Positions 17,744-39,651 of a stretch of DNA of 64,000 nt are shown one piece after another. The notes beneath the pieces are model-generated. The model did not search any database, had not been told where the DNA came from, and saw nothing but the letters and a program-made list of their open reading frames with translations. The position numbers and the translations under genes are program-made. Positions within the stretch are counted from its first letter, which is position 1; every line of letters begins with the position of its first letter. The DNA comes from an uncultured Alphaproteobacteria bacterium (GTDB lineage: Bacteria > Pseudomonadota > Alphaproteobacteria > Rs-D84): NCBI GenBank assembly GCA_947646585.1, contig CANSHD010000001.1, forward strand, positions 248,617-312,616, read 5' to 3'.

Positions 17744-19084
17744 ATGAAAAAAATAGCTTTATTGGCATGCGTAATGCCTTTTTCGGCGTGGGCTGCAAAC
17801 GATTGTTTGAACCGCCAGACGGTGCCGGACGGCCCGATGTCACTGCAAGAGGTAATAGAGTTGGGACTGTGCCGCAATCCGACAACTACATCCGCATATT
17901 TGGCGGCCGAATCCGCCCGATTTGCGAAAAATGCGGGCTATGCGAACTATTTGCCCAGTGTTAACGCCGGGGCCAGTGCCGGTATTGATTACCGCAACAA
18001 GGAATGGGGTGACTGGAATTATGGCGCGTCGTTGTCGGCGTCTTATTTGATATTTGATTTTGGAAAGCGCTTGGCCGACCTGAATGCATTGGCGGCGACG
18101 TGGCGTGCAACCGGTTTTGATTATGACGAAAGCGTTCAGAATTACGTTTATGGTGTTATCGGTGCGTATTATGCATTGTTGAATGCAGACGCGGACGTGA
18201 CGTCGGCGGAAAAACTGCGCGAGGTGGCGCAGTCCGCGCGCGACATGGCGCAAAAGAAGTACAAGGCGGGTTCTGTCGCCAAGGCCGATGTGCTGAAGGC
18301 GGACACAACCCTGGCCAGTCGTGACGTCGCACTGGAACGTGCAAAAAACAACCGCGAGATTGCAAAGGGCACCCTGCTCTCAAAATTGTCTTTCCCGGCG
18401 GACCAGAACATAGAGATTATGGACATGCCGTCCGATTTCGGACGCAGCACGGAAAACAAGAGCGTTGACGAGTTAATAGAGGCCGCGCGCAAATCCCGCC
18501 CGGATTTGCTGCGTGCGACTGCGAACAAGGACGCCGCATGGCATCGCCGCAACAGTGCGTTTTTAAAAAATCTGCCGAGTATTTCGGCCACGGGCTCCAT
18601 TAACTGGAACGACACGGAATGGAATTCGTTCGCCAACGACAGCTACAAGGTGACGGGCAGCGTCGGTATCCGCGCATCCATGCCGATATTTGCGGGCTTT
18701 GCCAATTATTACGGCGTCCGCAGTGCCGAGGCGAACTATGACCGTGCCAAAGAGTCTGAGCGCGCCGCCGCAGATAACGCCGTTTTAGATATCTTTACGG
18801 CATACCAGAACTATAAAACCGCACAAAAGGTTTTATCGCAGACTGAAACGCTGCTTAAATCCGCGACCGAAAGTGAAAAGGTAACCGCCGGTATGTACAA
18901 GGTGGGGCGGGCGACCATGCTGGACTGGCAGACGGCGCAGTCCGAACTGGTTGACGCGCAAAAGCAGCATAATGCGGCCAAATACGATTTGTTTACCAGC
19001 CGCGCGTCGGTTGCGCTGGCCATCGGCGACATAAAGGCCGAACTGGATAAAGAGAGGGAGAAAAACAATGAAAAGCAAGATTAA
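17744..19084 (+). CDS. tolC: TolC-family outer membrane efflux protein (outer membrane factor)
   Basis: signal peptide MKKIALLACVMPFSAWA; duplicated OEP repeats with ..QKKYKAGSVAKADVL.. and ..YKVGRATMLDWQTAQSEL.. Confidence 0.8.
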   Translation: MKKIALLACVMPFSAWAANDCLNRQTVPDGPMSLQEVIELGLCRNPTTTSAYLAAESARFAKNAGYANYLPSVNAGASAGIDYRNKEWGDWNYGASLSASYLIFDFGKRLADLNALAATWRATGFDYDESVQNYVYGVIGAYYALLNADADVTSAEKLREVAQSARDMAQKKYKAGSVAKADVLKADTTLASRDVALERAKNNREIAKGTLLSKLSFPADQNIEIMDMPSDFGRSTENKSVDELIEAARKSRPDLLRATANKDAAWHRRNSAFLKNLPSISATGSINWNDTEWNSFANDSYKVTGSVGIRASMPIFAGFANYYGVRSAEANYDRAKESERAAADNAVLDIFTAYQNYKTAQKVLSQTETLLKSATESEKVTAGMYKVGRATMLDWQTAQSELVDAQKQHNAAKYDLFTSRASVALAIGDIKAELDKEREKNNEKQD

Positions 19085-20243
19085 ATCCTTAATCAAATGG
19101 GTTTGGCGTAAAAAGTGGTGGTTTTTGATTTTGGCTGTGGTAATTGTTGTCCCGATGCTGATATTCGGCGGCGGCAAATCCAAAAAATCCGAATATGTTA
19201 CATTGCAAATCGGGCGCGGTAACCTGCGCCAGGTTGTGACGGCCACCGGCGAGATTCAGCCTGTGAACACGGTCAGCGTCGGCTCCCAGGTGTCGGGAAC
19301 GATTGACGCGCTGTACGTCGATTATAATTCCAAGGTAAAAAAGGGCGACCTGTTGTTAACGATAGAGCCGTCGGTATTGCAAGCGTCCGTGGACGAGGCC
19401 AAGGCGTCCCTTGATTCCGCGATTTCCCAGCGTAATTATGCGCAAAACGAATATAAACGAAACAAGGAATTGTATGCGTCCGATTTTATTGCGCGCGCGG
19501 AACTGGAACAGTCGCAAACCACGTATGAACAGGCCGAGCAGTCTGTAAAACGCGCCCAGTCGCAATATGACCGCGCGGTGACGAATCTGGGCTATGCAAC
19601 GATTACGTCCCCGGTTGACGGGACCGTTATTTCGCGCAAGGTTGACAAGGGCCAGACGGTCGCGGCATCTTTCCAGACGCCCGATTTGTTTGAAATTGCC
19701 GAAGATTTGACGCGCATGCAGATTGAAACGTCCGTATCGGAGGCCGACATCGGCGTCATCAAAGAAGGCCAGGCGGTGACGTTCACCGTCGATGCGTATC
19801 CGACCCAGACGTTCGATGGCGTCGTGCGCCAGATTCGCCTGTCGCCGACAACAACGTCAAACGTTGTCGTTTATACGGTTGTAATCGACGTTGACAACAC
19901 GGATTTGCGCTTGATGCCGGGTATGACCGCGTTTGTGACGATTATCGTTTCTGAAAAGAACGACGTATGGAAAGTGCAGAACGCCGCCCTGCTTGTTCGT
20001 TCGTTCGACGGAATTATCGAGAATGCGGGCGATGCAACGCCGAAGACCCATCTGGCGATAAAGCGTGGCGAGGAAATCAGTCTGGTACCGTATGAAAAGG
20101 GGCTGGTAACCGCGACGGAAACGGAAATCATATCCGACGGCATTGCAGAGGGCGACCTTATCGTCGTCGGCAAGGTCGGCCAGGCGTCAAGCGCCAAATC
20201 CGGCAACAATCAGCAGCGTCGCGGCCCCGGCGGCCCAATGTAA
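19068..20243 (+). CDS. macA: HlyD/MacA-family periplasmic adaptor (membrane fusion protein)
   Basis: N-terminal TM, coiled coil, lipoyl/beta-barrel motifs (TGEIQPVNTVSVGSQVSGTI, ITSPVDGTVISRKV). Confidence 0.85.
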   Translation: MKSKIKSLIKWVWRKKWWFLILAVVIVVPMLIFGGGKSKKSEYVTLQIGRGNLRQVVTATGEIQPVNTVSVGSQVSGTIDALYVDYNSKVKKGDLLLTIEPSVLQASVDEAKASLDSAISQRNYAQNEYKRNKELYASDFIARAELEQSQTTYEQAEQSVKRAQSQYDRAVTNLGYATITSPVDGTVISRKVDKGQTVAASFQTPDLFEIAEDLTRMQIETSVSEADIGVIKEGQAVTFTVDAYPTQTFDGVVRQIRLSPTTTSNVVVYTVVIDVDNTDLRLMPGMTAFVTIIVSEKNDVWKVQNAALLVRSFDGIIENAGDATPKTHLAIKRGEEISLVPYEKGLVTATETEIISDGIAEGDLIVVGKVGQASSAKSGNNQQRRGPGGPM

Positions 20244-21022
20244 TGGGGGCGATAATGAAAAAGGCGCAGACGGCAAAAAAGCCGGAGACGATAATATCTC
20301 TAAAAGATATAACAAAAAAGTTCCCCTTGGAAATGGGGGGCGAGCAGCAGGTTCTGTTCGACATAACATTTGACGTTCATGCCGGCGAATTTGTTGCGGT
20401 CATGGGCCCGTCGGGCAGTGGCAAATCCACATGCATGAACATAATCGGCGCGCTGGACACGCCGTCGGGCGGCACGTATGAACTATACGGGCGGAATATT
20501 ACCGGCCTGTCGCCGGACGAACTGGCCGTGATTCGAAACGAATATATCGGATTTGTTTTTCAGCAGTTTAATCTGCTCTCAAAGCGCACGGTGCTGGACA
20601 ACGTTATGCTGCCGCTGATGTATCGCGGTCTGCCCATGTCCGAACGCGTGCGGCGTGCGCGCGAAATGCTGCGCCGCGTGGGGCTGGAAAAATTCGAAAG
20701 TTACCTGCCGACGCAGCTCTCGGGCGGTATGAAGCAGCGCGTGGCGATTGCGCGCGCGCTTGCGGGCGACCCGAAACTGATTCTGGCGGACGAACCGACC
20801 GGCGCGCTGGACAGTAAAATGGGGAACGAAATTCTGAAATTTTTAAAGGAACTGAACAAGACCCAGGGCATCACGATTGTAATGATAACCCACGAGTTTG
20901 AAATTGCGCGTTATGCAAACCGCCTTATCCATATTTACGACGGTCATATAACGTATGACGGACCGGTTCCGAATACAGAGGCGGCGCTGATAAAATCTGA
21001 ATCCAAAGGACGCAAGAAATGA
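20243..21022 (+). CDS. macB: MacB/LolD-type ABC transporter ATP-binding protein
   Basis: Walker A VMGPSGSGKST; signature LSGGMKQRVAIARAL; Walker B LILADEPTGALD; alternative start at 20255. Confidence 0.9.
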   Translation: MGAIMKKAQTAKKPETIISLKDITKKFPLEMGGEQQVLFDITFDVHAGEFVAVMGPSGSGKSTCMNIIGALDTPSGGTYELYGRNITGLSPDELAVIRNEYIGFVFQQFNLLSKRTVLDNVMLPLMYRGLPMSERVRRAREMLRRVGLEKFESYLPTQLSGGMKQRVAIARALAGDPKLILADEPTGALDSKMGNEILKFLKELNKTQGITIVMITHEFEIARYANRLIHIYDGHITYDGPVPNTEAALIKSESKGRKK

Positions 21023-22236
21023 CCTTTAACGATATTTTCAAGGAATCATGGCTGTCGGTGTCCGGGAACAAAATGCGCTCGTTTTTGACGGTTCTGGGTA
21101 TTGTTATCGGTGTTATGGCGGTGGTTATAATGGTTGCCGTCGGCGAAACGGTCGAGCGCCAGATTACGGACCAGTTTTCGGCACTGGGCACCAATACGAT
21201 TATGATTCGCGCCGGCGCGGCCCAGACGGGCGGTGTTCGCACCGGAAACCGCCAGACGTTGACGATTGACGACGCGGAATATATCGGCCGCCTGCCCGAC
21301 GTTATGGCGGTGTCGCCGGTGCAAAGCAGCGGCGCTCAGATAGTATACGGAAACAAAAACTGGTCATCGGTTATGTACGGCGTATACCCCGATTATACGA
21401 CTGTTCAAAACATTGAAATGGACAAGGGTACGTTTTTTGACCAGGCGGCTGTTCGTAATGCGTCCACATACGCGGTAATCGGCCCCACGACGGCAAAAGA
21501 GCTGGACTTGCCCGCTGACCCCGTGGGCCAGGTAATCCGCGTCCAGAATGTTCCTTTTGTTATTATTGGCATGACCAAGGAAAAGGGCGATTCCGGAATG
21601 GGGTCCCAGGACGATATGTTGCTTGTACCGATTACCACGCTGAAAAAGCGCGTCCAGGGCAGTCGATTCCCCAACGCGGTCAGTACGATTGGCATGAAAC
21701 TGTACCCCGATGCGGACAACACCGTTGTCACGAATCAGATAACCGCCCTGTTGCGCGACCGTCATAAATTAAAGGACGACGCGGCCGACGACTTTCAAAT
21801 CATGGATATGAAACAGGTGATGGAGACGATGAGCACCGTCACCGGATACATGAAAATGCTGTTGATTGCGATTGCGGCGGTCTCGTTGCTGGTGGGCTCC
21901 ATCGGCATTATGAACATGATGCTGGTGTCCGTTGCGGAACGTACGCGTGAAATCGGCGTGCGCAAGGCCATCGGCGCGCGCGAGCGTCAGATAATCATTC
22001 AGTTCCTGTCCGAATCGATATTTATATCGTTTATCGGCTCTATGGCGGGATTGTTGCTGGGTGTCGGCCTGTCCCAGGGTGTGGGGCGCTTTATCATGGG
22101 CTATAACGTGCCGTTTTCGGCCTGGCCGGTTGTGCTATCGGTATCGGTTGCGGTAATTGTTGGCCTGGCGTCCGGTGTTATGCCTGCATTAAAGGCGGCA
22201 AAGCTGAACCCGATTGACAGTCTGCGCTATGAATAA
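21019..22236 (+). CDS. MacB/FtsX-type ABC transporter permease
   Basis: N-terminal TM + large periplasmic domain + C-terminal FtsX-like 3-TM bundle (..RKAIGARERQII..). Confidence 0.88.
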   Translation: MTFNDIFKESWLSVSGNKMRSFLTVLGIVIGVMAVVIMVAVGETVERQITDQFSALGTNTIMIRAGAAQTGGVRTGNRQTLTIDDAEYIGRLPDVMAVSPVQSSGAQIVYGNKNWSSVMYGVYPDYTTVQNIEMDKGTFFDQAAVRNASTYAVIGPTTAKELDLPADPVGQVIRVQNVPFVIIGMTKEKGDSGMGSQDDMLLVPITTLKKRVQGSRFPNAVSTIGMKLYPDADNTVVTNQITALLRDRHKLKDDAADDFQIMDMKQVMETMSTVTGYMKMLLIAIAAVSLLVGSIGIMNMMLVSVAERTREIGVRKAIGARERQIIIQFLSESIFISFIGSMAGLLLGVGLSQGVGRFIMGYNVPFSAWPVVLSVSVAVIVGLASGVMPALKAAKLNPIDSLRYE

Positions 22237-22268
22237 AAAACGGCGGATATTCCGCCGTTTTTATTTTA
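22237..22268. terminator. bidirectional terminator (macB permease / Cys-rich gene)
   Basis: aaaaaacggcggatattccgccgtttttatttt. Confidence 0.8.
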
Positions 22269-22773
22269 CATAATGACATTTGTCGGTGTATGTAAATCTG
22301 CCCCCGGCGTCTGTCCCGGTTGTCCCCGCCGGCAGATAGCATTCCGTTATTGATGCCGCGCCGGTTGAATCCGTCGTGCCGGCAACGCCGCCGGATCTCG
22401 GGCACGCGGTGCATGATGCGGCCGCGGCGGCATTGTTATATCTCCCCTGGGCGCATGGCTTGCATGACGTCAATGTGTTGTCCGCCGCCGAATAGTACCC
22501 CGCCCCGCACGCATTGCACGTGCATGTGGATGTATTGCCGCTGGATTTGTATCCGGCATTGCATTTGCATCGATATGATGTTGTCGCGGTCGGACAGCAG
22601 AGTGTCGTGGTGTTGATGCCGTCGCATTTGGGGCAGTGTTTTGATTGGCGCACGCCGTTGCTGATTGGGCTCCACATATCCATCCAGTCGTTGTTAAGTG
22701 CCGCCAATGCCGGGCATGCGTTCGGCCACGCCGCCGCGCCGATACATATGCATGTGATGATTGATTTTCTCAT
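22261..22773 (-). CDS. secreted cysteine-rich repeat protein (ephrin-receptor-like / GCC2_GCC3-like CxxCxxGxY...CxxCP units); paralog of 47228-47835
   Basis: signal peptide; ~20 Cys; C-terminal block CTACPRSGG..ITECYLPAGT..FTYTDKCHYVK aligns with CTRCPSSGG..ITSCYIPSGT..TYTGDCYYKN of 47557 ORF. Confidence 0.6.
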   Translation of the reverse strand: MRKSIITCICIGAAAWPNACPALAALNNDWMDMWSPISNGVRQSKHCPKCDGINTTTLCCPTATTSYRCKCNAGYKSSGNTSTCTCNACGAGYYSAADNTLTSCKPCAQGRYNNAAAAASCTACPRSGGVAGTTDSTGAASITECYLPAGTTGTDAGGRFTYTDKCHYVK

Positions 22774-22796
22774 GATTTCAATTCCCTTTTGTTTTT

Positions 22797-22827
22797 GTTA
22801 AACAAAAACCGCCGTTGGAATTGGCGG
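22797..22827 (-). terminator. hairpin + U-run in the 5' leader of the Cys-rich gene (attenuator-like)
   Basis: minus-strand ccgccaattccaacggcgg followed by tttttgttt; ~20 nt upstream of SD/ATG. Confidence 0.4.
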
Positions 22828-23111
22828 TCGGGGATTGAAAAAATCATATATAGAAATGACCCTGCGATTTTCGGGCGTGCCCTGTTGTATAATCGCAGAC
22901 CCCCGACCGGTTTGGTCGGGTTGCAAAAAACAGCGGTGCCAATGCACCGACGTTTTTAGTCGGATTTACAATGCAAACATGTGTTCGCACCGTCTCTATA
23001 AAGGATTTTTCAAGTCCCGAAGCCACATCCGTTGTGTCTTCGAACAAATTGTTGCAAACACGACACCTTTTTACAAGAAAAAACATTTGTGTATTGACAA
23101 AAAGATATTAT

Positions 23112-23140
23112 GTGCTACCTTTTTGATAAAAAGGTAGCAC
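23112..23140 (+). promoter_or_regulatory. near-perfect 13-bp-arm palindrome abutting the radical-SAM start codon
   Basis: gtgctaccttttt-gat-aaaaaggtagcac ends 1 nt before ATG 23141; candidate operator or RBS-sequestering hairpin. Confidence 0.5.
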
Positions 23141-24133
23141 ATGAATTTTATGCCGATTTATCAAAAATATTTGGCGTGGCGCGACCGCCATTTCCCCATG
23201 GGGAACATACTGCGTCATACGCAGTATGTATTGGTGTTCAAAACAACAAATTATTGTTGGTACCGGTGCCCGCATTGCTGTGAATGTTCGGGGCCGAATA
23301 ATCCGCGGACATTTATTCCGGTCCGTACCATATGCTCTTATTTGGACCAGGCGCATGCCGACCCGTCATTTTCAAACAACGTTGTGTTTACAGGCGGGGA
23401 AATCATGTCGGCATACCGCTTTGGGCCGGCCGATTACGTGCCGACATTATTGAATCACAGTCTGGATTTGGGCATCGGTACGGATATAAAGACCAATGCC
23501 GCATGGGTGCGCGCCGGATTTGGCGAGGGGATATTTCAGGATTTGCATCACGTAATATCGTCACATAAACCGTATTCGTTGCAGATATCGCTGTCGCTGG
23601 ACAGGTATCATAAAAATGCGTTGGAAAACAACGCCGCGGTGATATCGCGCCTGGCCAAAATGCCAAACACAAACGCCATCGTCCATGTATCCGGATTTAA
23701 TAACCATGTTGACATGTTTCCGGCATTGTTGGAGCGGATTAAAGCAAACGGTCTGAAAATAGATGAGGTTTTATGCGGCTCTGCTGGAAAAATTTTACCG
23801 CGTGTCGGCGGCCGGATTTTGTTGCAGTATTCAAAGGGAACGCTGTTTGACGGCGGGCGTGCGCGCGACATGGAATGGGCGCATCATTCGGAATTTCCGC
23901 AGTTTCAGTTTTTAACCGCCGACGGCATGTCTTTGATTGCGTTTGACAGCGCGGGTCGTGTAACGCTTGGCGAAAATTCAGGCCGCAAAATATCGACATC
24001 TTTTTTGATGCGTAAGAATTTTAATGTATATCTGAAAAATTTGTATCATATTCGCGCCGATTTGGTTAAGGCCACATGGCGCGAGGAGACGCGCGCCCGC
24101 CTGCTGGATGGCTGGCGTTTTAACGAGCGATAA
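23141..24133 (+). CDS. radical SAM domain protein of unknown function (no SPASM/twitch Cys cluster)
   Basis: CxxxCxxC at TTNYCWYRCPHCC; glycine-rich SAM motif VVFTGGE; IKTNA motif; 330 aa. Confidence 0.7.
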   Translation: MNFMPIYQKYLAWRDRHFPMGNILRHTQYVLVFKTTNYCWYRCPHCCECSGPNNPRTFIPVRTICSYLDQAHADPSFSNNVVFTGGEIMSAYRFGPADYVPTLLNHSLDLGIGTDIKTNAAWVRAGFGEGIFQDLHHVISSHKPYSLQISLSLDRYHKNALENNAAVISRLAKMPNTNAIVHVSGFNNHVDMFPALLERIKANGLKIDEVLCGSAGKILPRVGGRILLQYSKGTLFDGGRARDMEWAHHSEFPQFQFLTADGMSLIAFDSAGRVTLGENSGRKISTSFLMRKNFNVYLKNLYHIRADLVKATWREETRARLLDGWRFNER

Positions 24134-26126: not shown

Positions 26127-26210
26127 CTGGATTGCCACGGTCGTTTCACTCCCTCGCAATGACAGCGAGCCTGGAACGATTGTCATTGCGAACGAAGTGA
26201 AGCAATCCAG
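26127..26210. repeat. MITE/REP-like nested palindromic element, copy A
   Basis: outer IR ctggattgc/gcaatccag; inner IR ctcgcaatgacag/ttgtcattgcga. Confidence 0.8.
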
Positions 26211-26237: not shown

Positions 26238-26341
26238 GGAATTGCCGCGTCGGCGTAATCGCCTCCTCGCAATGACAGTGGCGGGTAATGTTGCAATTTA
26301 TCTCCATTGTCATTGCGAGCCCCAACGGGGCGTGGCAATCC
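26238..26341. repeat. MITE/REP-like nested palindromic element, copy B (tandem to A)
   Basis: ggaattgcc..cctcgcaatgacag..ttgtcattgcgag..ggcaatcc. Confidence 0.8.
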
Positions 26342-39548: not shown

Positions 39549-39651
39549 CTGGATTGCTTCGGCATTCGCCTCGCAATGACAAAGGCGCGGAATGTTGCGC
39601 TTCATCACTCTTGTCATTGCGAGGAGGGCATAGCCCGACGTGGCAATCCAG
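39549..39651. repeat. MITE/REP-like nested palindromic element, copy C
   Basis: ctggattgc..cctcgcaatgaca..ttgtcattgcgagg..ggcaatccag; same family as 26127-26341. Confidence 0.8.

Follow-up and report, generated by a model that had tools for sequence, protein, structure and literature searches.

In the insertion sequences IS10 and IS50, transcripts that arrive from outside pair a segment upstream of the element's own start with the ribosome-binding site of the transposase gene and are left untranslated. Transcription from the element's own promoter begins within that upstream segment or beyond it, and the resulting RNA can be translated. This fold-back inhibition of read-through transcripts was reportedly described by Davis, Simons & Kleckner in 1985, Krebs & Reznikoff in 1986 and Schulz & Reznikoff in 1991. 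The left end of IS200 carries both a terminator against impinging transcription and a hairpin that sequesters the Shine-Dalgarno (SD) sequence (PMC4513863).

Here we analyse an inverted repeat that abuts the start codon of a radical-SAM gene in a 64,000-nucleotide stretch of DNA from an uncultured alphaproteobacterium (hereafter the window). Comparison with orthologous loci leads us to read the dyad as a fold-back element that would act on incoming transcripts and exempt the mRNA made from the gene's own promoter, a reading about which we are evenly balanced between confidence and doubt.

Results

The core of the dyad is a perfect inverted repeat, GTGCTACCTTTTT (23112-23124), GAT and AAAAAGGTAGCAC (23128-23140), and pairing extends outwards to perfect 15-nt arms, ATGTGCTACCTTTTT and AAAAAGGTAGCACAT (Table 1). 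A sequence-only reading of the same DNA had described a near-perfect dyad with 13-bp arms that ends one nucleotide before the start codon. The dyad is present, but it is perfect rather than near-perfect and its arms measure 15 nt; the 13-nt version directly touches the ATG at 23141, with zero nucleotides between, and the 15-nt version takes in the A and T of the start codon. The same reading had correctly recognized that the 3' arm holds the only SD-like motif of the gene, AAGG at 23131-23134, 6 nt 5' of the ATG. The position of this ATG is supported by the N-termini of close relatives (MNF...).

The dyad is not a chance product; in 64 kb of simulated first-order Markov sequence, 0.03 inverted repeats with perfect 13-nt arms and a loop of 0-10 nt are expected. 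As RNA it folds with -18.1 kcal/mol (about -18 to -19), with z = -8.7 against shuffled sequences. Four more inverted repeats in the window are perfect over at least 13 nt, and all are built like bidirectional terminators (A-tract, G+C stem, T-tract); the dyad is arranged the other way round, with T5 and A5 tracts beside its loop.

Table 1. Features of the radical-SAM locus, in window coordinates.
Feature	Position	Strand	Remarks
Canonical bidirectional terminator	22236..22262		Between macB (+) and the inserted 170-aa gene (-)
Second anti-SD copy, ACCTTTTTA	23066..23074	+	Complementary to 23127-23135; window-specific
-35 hexamer, TTGACA	23094..23099	+	16-nt spacer (23100-23115) to the -10 hexamer
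Left arm	23110..23124	+	ATGTGCTACCTTTTT
Extended -10	23111..23121	+	TGTG (23111-23114), C, hexamer TACCTT (23116-23121); within the left arm
Loop, GAT	23125..23127	+	Promoter positions -3 to -1; sequence and length vary among orthologs
Predicted transcription start	23128	+	Putative; 7 nt past the last T of the -10 hexamer
Right arm, AAAAAGGTAGCACAT	23128..23142	+	Whole predicted 13-nt 5'UTR (23128-23140) plus A and T of the start codon
Radical-SAM gene, 330 aa, divergent	23141..24133	+	CxxxCxxC at C39, C43 and C46
U-rich tail, ATTTTATG	23144..23151	+	After the extended stem; codons 2-4 AAT TTT ATG

The 330-aa product falls below the Pfam Radical_SAM threshold (E = 0.004) and has 154 relatives at E <= 0.001, the named ones nearly all from uncultured gut Alphaproteobacteria, many of them labelled Candidatus Enterousia. 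Its AlphaFold model (pLDDT 91) most resembles the peptide epimerase EpeE/YydG, along with other radical-SAM enzymes that modify peptides (TM about 0.53). A search of 22900-23140 for a small peptide gene, a possible radical-SAM precursor, gave no convincing ORF. Upstream lie tolC-macA-macB (17744-22236) and then a 170-aa gene on the opposite strand (22261-22773); downstream are infC, a UDG-family gene, an OmpA-family gene and parB. We also considered a small + strand RNA starting from a TATAAT near 22886 and rejected it, because the minus strand has an sRNA-Xcc1-like RNA there and the motif is complementary to a conserved part of it.

To place the dyad relative to the gene's promoter, 66 orthologous loci were collected and the upstream regions of 62 were aligned on the start codon. 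Nearly all 62 carry a near-consensus sigma-70 promoter, TTGACA-N16/17-(TGTGn)TAnnnT, with an extended -10 of the TRTG type. An automatic scan (at most one mismatch, correct spacing) placed the -35 in 56 of the 62 loci; four of these assignments were incorrect, and inspection by eye shows the element in most of the remaining loci. The motif TTGTGnTAnnnT is kept throughout the family, even where orthologs are leaderless and lack a right arm. The hexamer of the window, TACCTT, recurs in lineages L054, L063, L065, L015 and L016; with only 3 of 6 positions in common with TATAAT, it goes uncalled in a generic promoter scan. An antisense promoter was also considered, formed by the mirror image of the extended -10 on the opposite strand (TACCTT, 23136 to 23131), and discarded, since there is no -35 at 16-18 nt and the scan does not report it either.

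The distance from hexamer to start codon separates two kinds of ortholog. In 22 orthologs the ATG follows the -10 hexamer by 6-7 nt and in six more by 8-10 nt, and these genes are apparently leaderless, as judged from their sequences. This short distance would fix where the promoter starts. In the clade that carries the dyad, the ATG lies 16-22 nt after the hexamer, and the 19 nt of the window equal the leaderless 6-nt spacing plus the 13-nt right arm. By this alignment the left arm, at -18 to -4 of the predicted promoter, is the putative extended -10 element plus discriminator, and the predicted +1 coincides with the first base of the right arm, which would thus form the complete leader.

The placement of the promoter determines which RNAs can fold. 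The ribosome-binding region is complementary to a segment upstream of the predicted own transcription start. Opening -13..+3 costs 20.6 kcal/mol in a read-through RNA that starts 90 nt upstream and 0.1 kcal/mol in the own-promoter RNA; the opening cost in the window is the top outlier of 56 gene starts (median 4.6, next highest 12.3 kcal/mol). In ten lineages in which macB is adjacent to the gene, the corresponding costs are 12.6-19.4 kcal/mol for read-through RNA versus 0.1-5.2 kcal/mol for own-promoter RNA. In distant leadered orthologs (L014-L046) read-through RNA opens at 3-10 kcal/mol, within the background of the window, and strong fold-back is therefore specific to one clade. It had been proposed, before the left arm was recognized as the gene's putative extended -10, that the dyad, as RNA, would sequester the ribosome-binding region. 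This is borne out for RNA with both arms, in which SD and AUG are buried, and not for own-promoter mRNA; sequestration should be limited to transcripts entering from upstream because the gene's own transcript should contain the right arm only.

The same folding energies could instead be read as a hairpin in the gene's own 5'UTR that represses translation at all times or, in the manner of a thermometer or a switch opened by a factor, under certain conditions only. Such a hairpin would also bury SD and AUG, and its U5/A5-GG pairing loosely resembles that of fourU-type thermometers. It would need a transcription start upstream of 23110, however, and a promoter scan of 22774-23093 found no + strand promoter; the conserved promoter puts the predicted +1 inside the dyad. 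To our knowledge, -18 kcal/mol and 15 perfect pairs are far beyond the stability of known thermometers. Rfam gave no family at its gathering score near the dyad, and a relaxed threshold added only chance-level matches to hairpins of the microRNA-precursor type. We regard this alternative as very unlikely.

We then examined how the helix has changed among relatives, using a clade set of 16 distinct upstream sequences with protein identity of at least 58%. The sequence-only reading had named comparison with orthologous loci as a check, with lack of conservation counting against it; the dyad is conserved across this clade and shows compensatory changes. Pairing persists in lineages with as little as 58-60% protein identity, and perfect 12-13-nt dyads occur in L054/L055, L063 and L065. 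L059/L060 carry GTGCTACTCTTTT / AAAAGAGTAGCAC, two double compensatory changes relative to the window, and U-A stands in L056, L061 and L066 where other lineages have C-G. With arm-only constructs, 92% of cells are paired and three pairs are changed on both sides, and partners slid by 1-3 columns are 45-66% paired. The covariation score was 0.211, compared with 0.170 in shuffles, of which 2 of 500 reached the observed score.

Several details of this alignment bear on what is being conserved. First, one-sided changes produce U-G on the + strand (19 cells), a bias that is partly expected regardless of structure, as the -10 element favours T and the SD favours G. Second, the 15 unpaired cells all fall in five lineages without adjacent macB; one of them, in L058, is C-A. 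Third, across ten lineages the SD-AUG spacer TAGCAC is 89% conserved, compared with 55% for the -35/-10 spacer; an SD-AUG spacer is normally unconstrained in sequence. Lastly, the geometry is loose: the span from GTG to CAC is 28, 29, 30 or 31 nt among mismatch-free lineages, the T and A tracts are often unequal (T4 versus A7 in L063, for example), and loops of 4-5 nt occur in relatives.

These details weigh on two readings of the dyad as DNA. Extrusion of the palindrome as a cruciform under negative supercoiling would take the -10 out of the duplex and make the promoter sensitive to supercoiling, and the 15-nt perfect arms, 3-nt loop and A/T centre would favour it. The G-U pairs that orthologs tolerate on one strand would, however, be A-C mismatches in the other cruciform arm, and the longer loops and unequal tracts of relatives also count against extrusion; with nothing in the data specifically in favour, we find it scarcely credible.

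The other is an operator. Palindromic repressor operators that overlap the -10 and +1, such as TetR-, LacI- or LexA-type sites, are well known, and the dyad had been put forward as a strong candidate operator for a dimeric regulator. On this reading the double-stranded palindrome (-18 to +15) would be bound by a dimeric repressor that blocks RNA polymerase. The perfect dyad lies exactly over -10 and +1, the classical place for a repressor, and two half-sites read by one protein would also be conserved and covary. The variable GTG-to-CAC span nevertheless argues against a dimeric operator, as a loop tolerates what a dimer usually does not: the outer half-site spacing varies by up to 3 bp. In addition, perfect arms of 15 nt are longer than the half-sites that proteins typically read, and almost every one-sided change remains compatible with G-U pairing on one strand. 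Leaderless orthologs without a right half-site conserve the left one just as well.

Searches for a regulator or for further sites were negative. No regulator gene is adjacent to the locus in about 20 clade loci or in the window, and only the two arms match when the window is searched for a second half-site with up to two mismatches. In 152 kb of clade DNA, each locus has a single degenerate dyad (up to three mismatches), which always sits at the radical-SAM start; together these scans covered only 64 kb of the genome and 152 kb of the clade, which leaves some room for an operator with sites elsewhere. A metagenome scan with TGTGYTAYNTTTN{2,10}AAANRTARCACA returned 109 loci from soil, marine and other samples, with G+C of 22 to 64%; all are unrelated palindromes, none followed by a radical-SAM gene, and by a rough estimate the count is about what general palindrome density predicts and hence uninformative. 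None of the consensus sites for LexA, Fur, CRP/FNR, NrdR, Rex, IscR, CIRCE, parS and BirA fits the dyad; BirA-type sites resemble it in their TGT...ACC / GGT...ACA outline, but its spacing varies and the gene product is a protein other than BioB. The proposed operator thus found no positive support. It is possible but unsupported because of the variable spacing, the missing regulator, the single copy, the left half-site in leaderless orthologs and the metagenome scan, and we consider it unlikely.

The fold-back reading draws on the genes that lie upstream. In ten lineages (L001, L002, L003, L054, L056, L059, L062, L063, L064 and L065) 50-56 nt separate the macB stop codon from the ATG, and they contain nothing but the promoter and the dyad, with no terminator besides. 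All ten have hairpins of -15.4 to -19.7 kcal/mol. Five clade members have other upstream contexts: macB is followed by a canonical terminator in L057, another gene lies upstream in L066, and the 170-aa insert and its terminators are present in L050, L058 and L061. Their hairpins have decayed to -3.1 to -11.7 kcal/mol, with opening costs of 3.1-7.8 kcal/mol. This association between an adjacent macB and a strong hairpin rests on few independent events, as L050, L058 and L061 share one upstream segment. Outgroups with adjacent macB (L006, L007 and L010) are leaderless and have no hairpin; in their read-through RNA the AUG would be internal and lack an SD. The sequences of these contexts suggest a common logic, in which the radical-SAM protein would be made from its own promoter only.

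The position of the hairpin raised the question of whether it could also end transcripts. It does not stand at the 3' end of a transcription unit in the window, and it does in the ten relatives, where it is the sole hairpin downstream of macB. A lenient terminator scan (at least 5 T in 8) flags the stem 23108-23144 with the tail ATTTTATG, which passes only if the stem is credited with two further pairs, one being G-T. After the ATG, AAT TTT is found in 14 of 16 clade lineages (ATT TTT in L054), although genome usage is 58% AAC and 39% TTC. A role as a weak terminator or 3'-end hairpin for macB transcripts is plausible from these sequences because of the lenient scan flag and the retention of AAT TTT despite common AAC and TTC. 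The stem is not G+C-rich, however, with 5 G-C pairs of 15-17 and five A-U pairs beside the loop, and the genome's clear terminators are G+C-rich. Terminator activity is doubtful given a stem that is A/U-rich at its centre and a non-canonical U-tract.

The window itself departs from this pattern. It contains no co-directional upstream unit that reads into the gene: macB is followed by its own terminator, which is predicted to block macB read-through in this genome, and the next gene lies on the opposite strand. The dyad is perfect here, yet the three other sampled lineages with the insert (L050, L058 and L061) have decayed copies. Comparison with L050 localizes the difference. Identity is 97-100% over 22728-23028 and 100% over 23128-23622, and it drops to 84% over 23028-23128; the locus is a recombination mosaic. 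Wherever the left arm differs from that of L050, a U-G or G-G has been replaced by a Watson-Crick pair and the T run is longer. A second changed patch (23056-23072) creates the anti-SD copy ACCTTTTTA, at whose site L050, L058 and L061 have AATATTTTA or AATGTTTTA.

The perfection of the dyad in the window fits a short imported recombination tract or a template switch in a quasipalindrome, a documented mutational route to perfect palindromes (PMC7202029), as far as its sequence tells. The dyad could be a functionless leftover in this genome of the inverted duplication that made the leader, perfected by either route. That the drop in identity is confined to 23028-23128, that the left-arm differences all improve pairing, that there is no upstream co-directional unit, that the other three insert-bearing copies have decayed and that the locus is mosaic all agree with this. 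The mismatch-free helix with compensatory changes in ten other lineages, however, needs selection or very frequent correction. The change also weakens the -10 match (from TATGTT to TACCTT) and is not obviously neutral, and the second patch is untemplated by the arm beyond 9 nt. We consider a functionless leftover rather unlikely. Even on the fold-back reading, the local copy may be idle or have little to do in this genome because macB has its own terminator and the 170-aa opposite-strand gene has been inserted.

Discussion

From the sequence of the dyad, its conservation and covariation, its thermodynamics and its link with the upstream context, we infer a start site inside the dyad, read-through from upstream and an effect on translation or termination. 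In our model an RNA fold-back element would be organized around the promoter of the radical-SAM gene throughout the clade, and the dyad of the window would be its local copy. The mRNA from that promoter would lack the left arm and leave the ribosome-binding site open. RNA arriving from upstream, in most relatives from the tolC-macA-macB operon that ends 50-56 nt away, would contain both arms, and the hairpin that they form (about -15 to -20 kcal/mol) would bury SD and AUG. Together with the following AAUUUUAU, the hairpin might possibly also act as a weak intrinsic terminator or 3'-end hairpin. As a result, radical-SAM expression would be insulated from the upstream operon. Apart from the operator and the functionless leftover, the remaining alternatives weighed above are improbable even when taken together.

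The leader probably originated by inverted duplication of the -10 region in a leaderless ancestor. Removing the 13-nt right arm restores the 6-nt hexamer-ATG spacing of the family. A more specific history, which we offer tentatively and hold to be doubtful, is that the SD leader was gained in one step by self-templated inverted duplication of the -10 (TACCTTTTT to AAAAAGGTA), that the hairpin was then selected as an insulator or terminator against the efflux operon, and that its arms were repeatedly re-perfected by template switching. If the one-step duplication is true, it would provide a concrete, datable path from leaderless to SD-led translation.

If the fold-back reading holds, a single 33-nt element would combine the -10, the start site, the whole leader, the ribosome-binding site and a hairpin against read-through. 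It would illustrate how independent expression is possible for a gene that follows an efflux operon by 50 nt, and how an SD leader can be acquired by a leaderless gene. It would then be a compact chromosomal case of a device so far described mainly for insertion sequences. The locus also carries a warning for annotation, as a perfect palindrome over a promoter is not necessarily an operator. The gene that would be guarded, an uncharacterised and strain-hypervariable radical-SAM enzyme with an EpeE/YydG-like fold, may merit its own study.

Comparison with described systems

The element does not qualify as a canonical intrinsic terminator, matches no described RNA family and makes no convincing operator. 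Like intrinsic terminators, it has a stem-loop followed by a U-rich stretch and, in relatives, stands at the end of the upstream operon. Unlike them, it has a G+C-poor stem with A/T tracts at the loop instead of the base, and its U-tract is interrupted (AUUUUAU) and lies within coding sequence. With TetR-, LacI- or LexA-type operators it shares dyad symmetry near +1 and coverage of the -10, but it differs in its variable half-site spacing, its very long arms, its tolerance of G-U on one strand and the lack of a regulator or second site in the DNA searched.

The clustered changes in one arm that make an imperfect repeat perfect, as seen between L050 and the window, are like those of quasipalindrome template switching (PMC7202029). 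Template switching is a mutational mechanism, however, and may explain the origin of the element and its perfection here, not its long-term upkeep in ten lineages.

Two further likenesses, drawn by analogy, are to insertion sequences. As in IS200, protection from incoming transcription would be combined with masking of the SD by a stem-loop. IS200 has two separate inverted repeats and its SD hairpin lies in its own 5'UTR, whereas here a single hairpin would serve both roles and would be absent from the predicted own mRNA. As in IS10 and IS50, the ribosome-binding region can pair with a segment upstream of the predicted own start, here the left arm of the dyad. Unlike in those elements, the gene that would be guarded is a chromosomal radical-SAM gene rather than a transposase gene, and the arms themselves would be the extended -10 upstream and the complete 13-nt leader downstream.

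Variation in and around the radical-SAM gene

Among otherwise near-identical strains, the radical-SAM gene (23141-24133) was hypervariable, especially over 23522-24113. Between the window and L061, one of three loci from other lineages that also carry the inserted 170-aa gene, the 3' half of the radical-SAM gene was only 50–78% identical, while the flanks were 95–99% identical. Between the window and L050, a second such locus, identity within the gene was 100%, falling to 75–94% in the final third. These alignments suggest allele exchange or diversifying selection.

The ~280-nt non-coding stretch at 22774-23050 showed 94–100% identity between the window and L050, L058 and L061, whereas the genes flanking it were only 72–90% identical between the window and L058. 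Such a pattern reflects either very strong constraint or recent exchange of the stretch as a cassette along with the 170-aa gene. The presence of this gene between macB and the radical-SAM gene was patchy. Within the same stretch, Rfam sRNA-Xcc1 was matched over its full length (E ~1e-7) at 48.3 bits, slightly below the gathering score of 53. Downstream of this minus-strand match lie a terminator-like hairpin and, after it, the Ephrin_rec_like gene of 170 aa (22773 to 22261).

Upstream regions of the orthologs and palindromic elements

In the orthologs at L004-L049, the majority of upstream regions contained TTGACA-N16-(TGTGn)TAnnnT followed by 6–7 nt to the ATG, and from their sequence the majority of these genes look leaderless. 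Short SD-bearing leaders of 12–20 nt were found in several separate ortholog lineages of this set.

Codons 6–9 of the radical-SAM gene contain TTTATCAAAAA (23157-23167), perfectly complementary to TTTTTGATAAA (23120-23130) at the centre of the dyad that runs two bases into the start codon. This pairing was found in the window alone because the loop of the dyad differs in relatives, and may be due to chance in A/T-rich sequence.

Elsewhere in the window, the core TCGCAATGACA / TGTCATTGCGA is common to three inverted-repeat pairs (as in CCTCGCAATGACAA ... TTGTCATTGCGAGG), which look like a dispersed palindromic repeat family.

Positions of the inverted repeats and the RNA match in the window
Feature	Position	Strand	Basis
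Inverted-repeat pair with shared core	26154-26191		
Inverted-repeat pair with shared core	26266-26319		
Inverted-repeat pair with shared core	39569-39624		
sRNA-Xcc1-like RNA	22818-22908	minus	Rfam RF02221, 48.3 bits, below gathering score

The 27-nt palindrome TGTGCTATCTTTGnCAAACGTAGCACA occurred in successive copies ~41 nt apart at five metagenome loci (L107, L111, L143, L153 and L156). L111 and L156 each contained two pattern matches, and the flanking sequence at all five loci contained additional near-copies. These loci are unrelated to the window and turned up solely through matching the dyad search pattern.

The radical-SAM protein family

The radical-SAM protein scores below the Pfam threshold and belongs to an uncharacterised family that is apparently largely confined to gut Alphaproteobacteria; the usual site of the family's gene is immediately after tolC-macA-macB. 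In the family alignment (A1), only Cys39, 43, 46 and 47 were invariant, and no second cluster motif was present. PADLOC returned a weak viperin match (3e-6), and the best fold match was the peptide epimerase EpeE/YydG.
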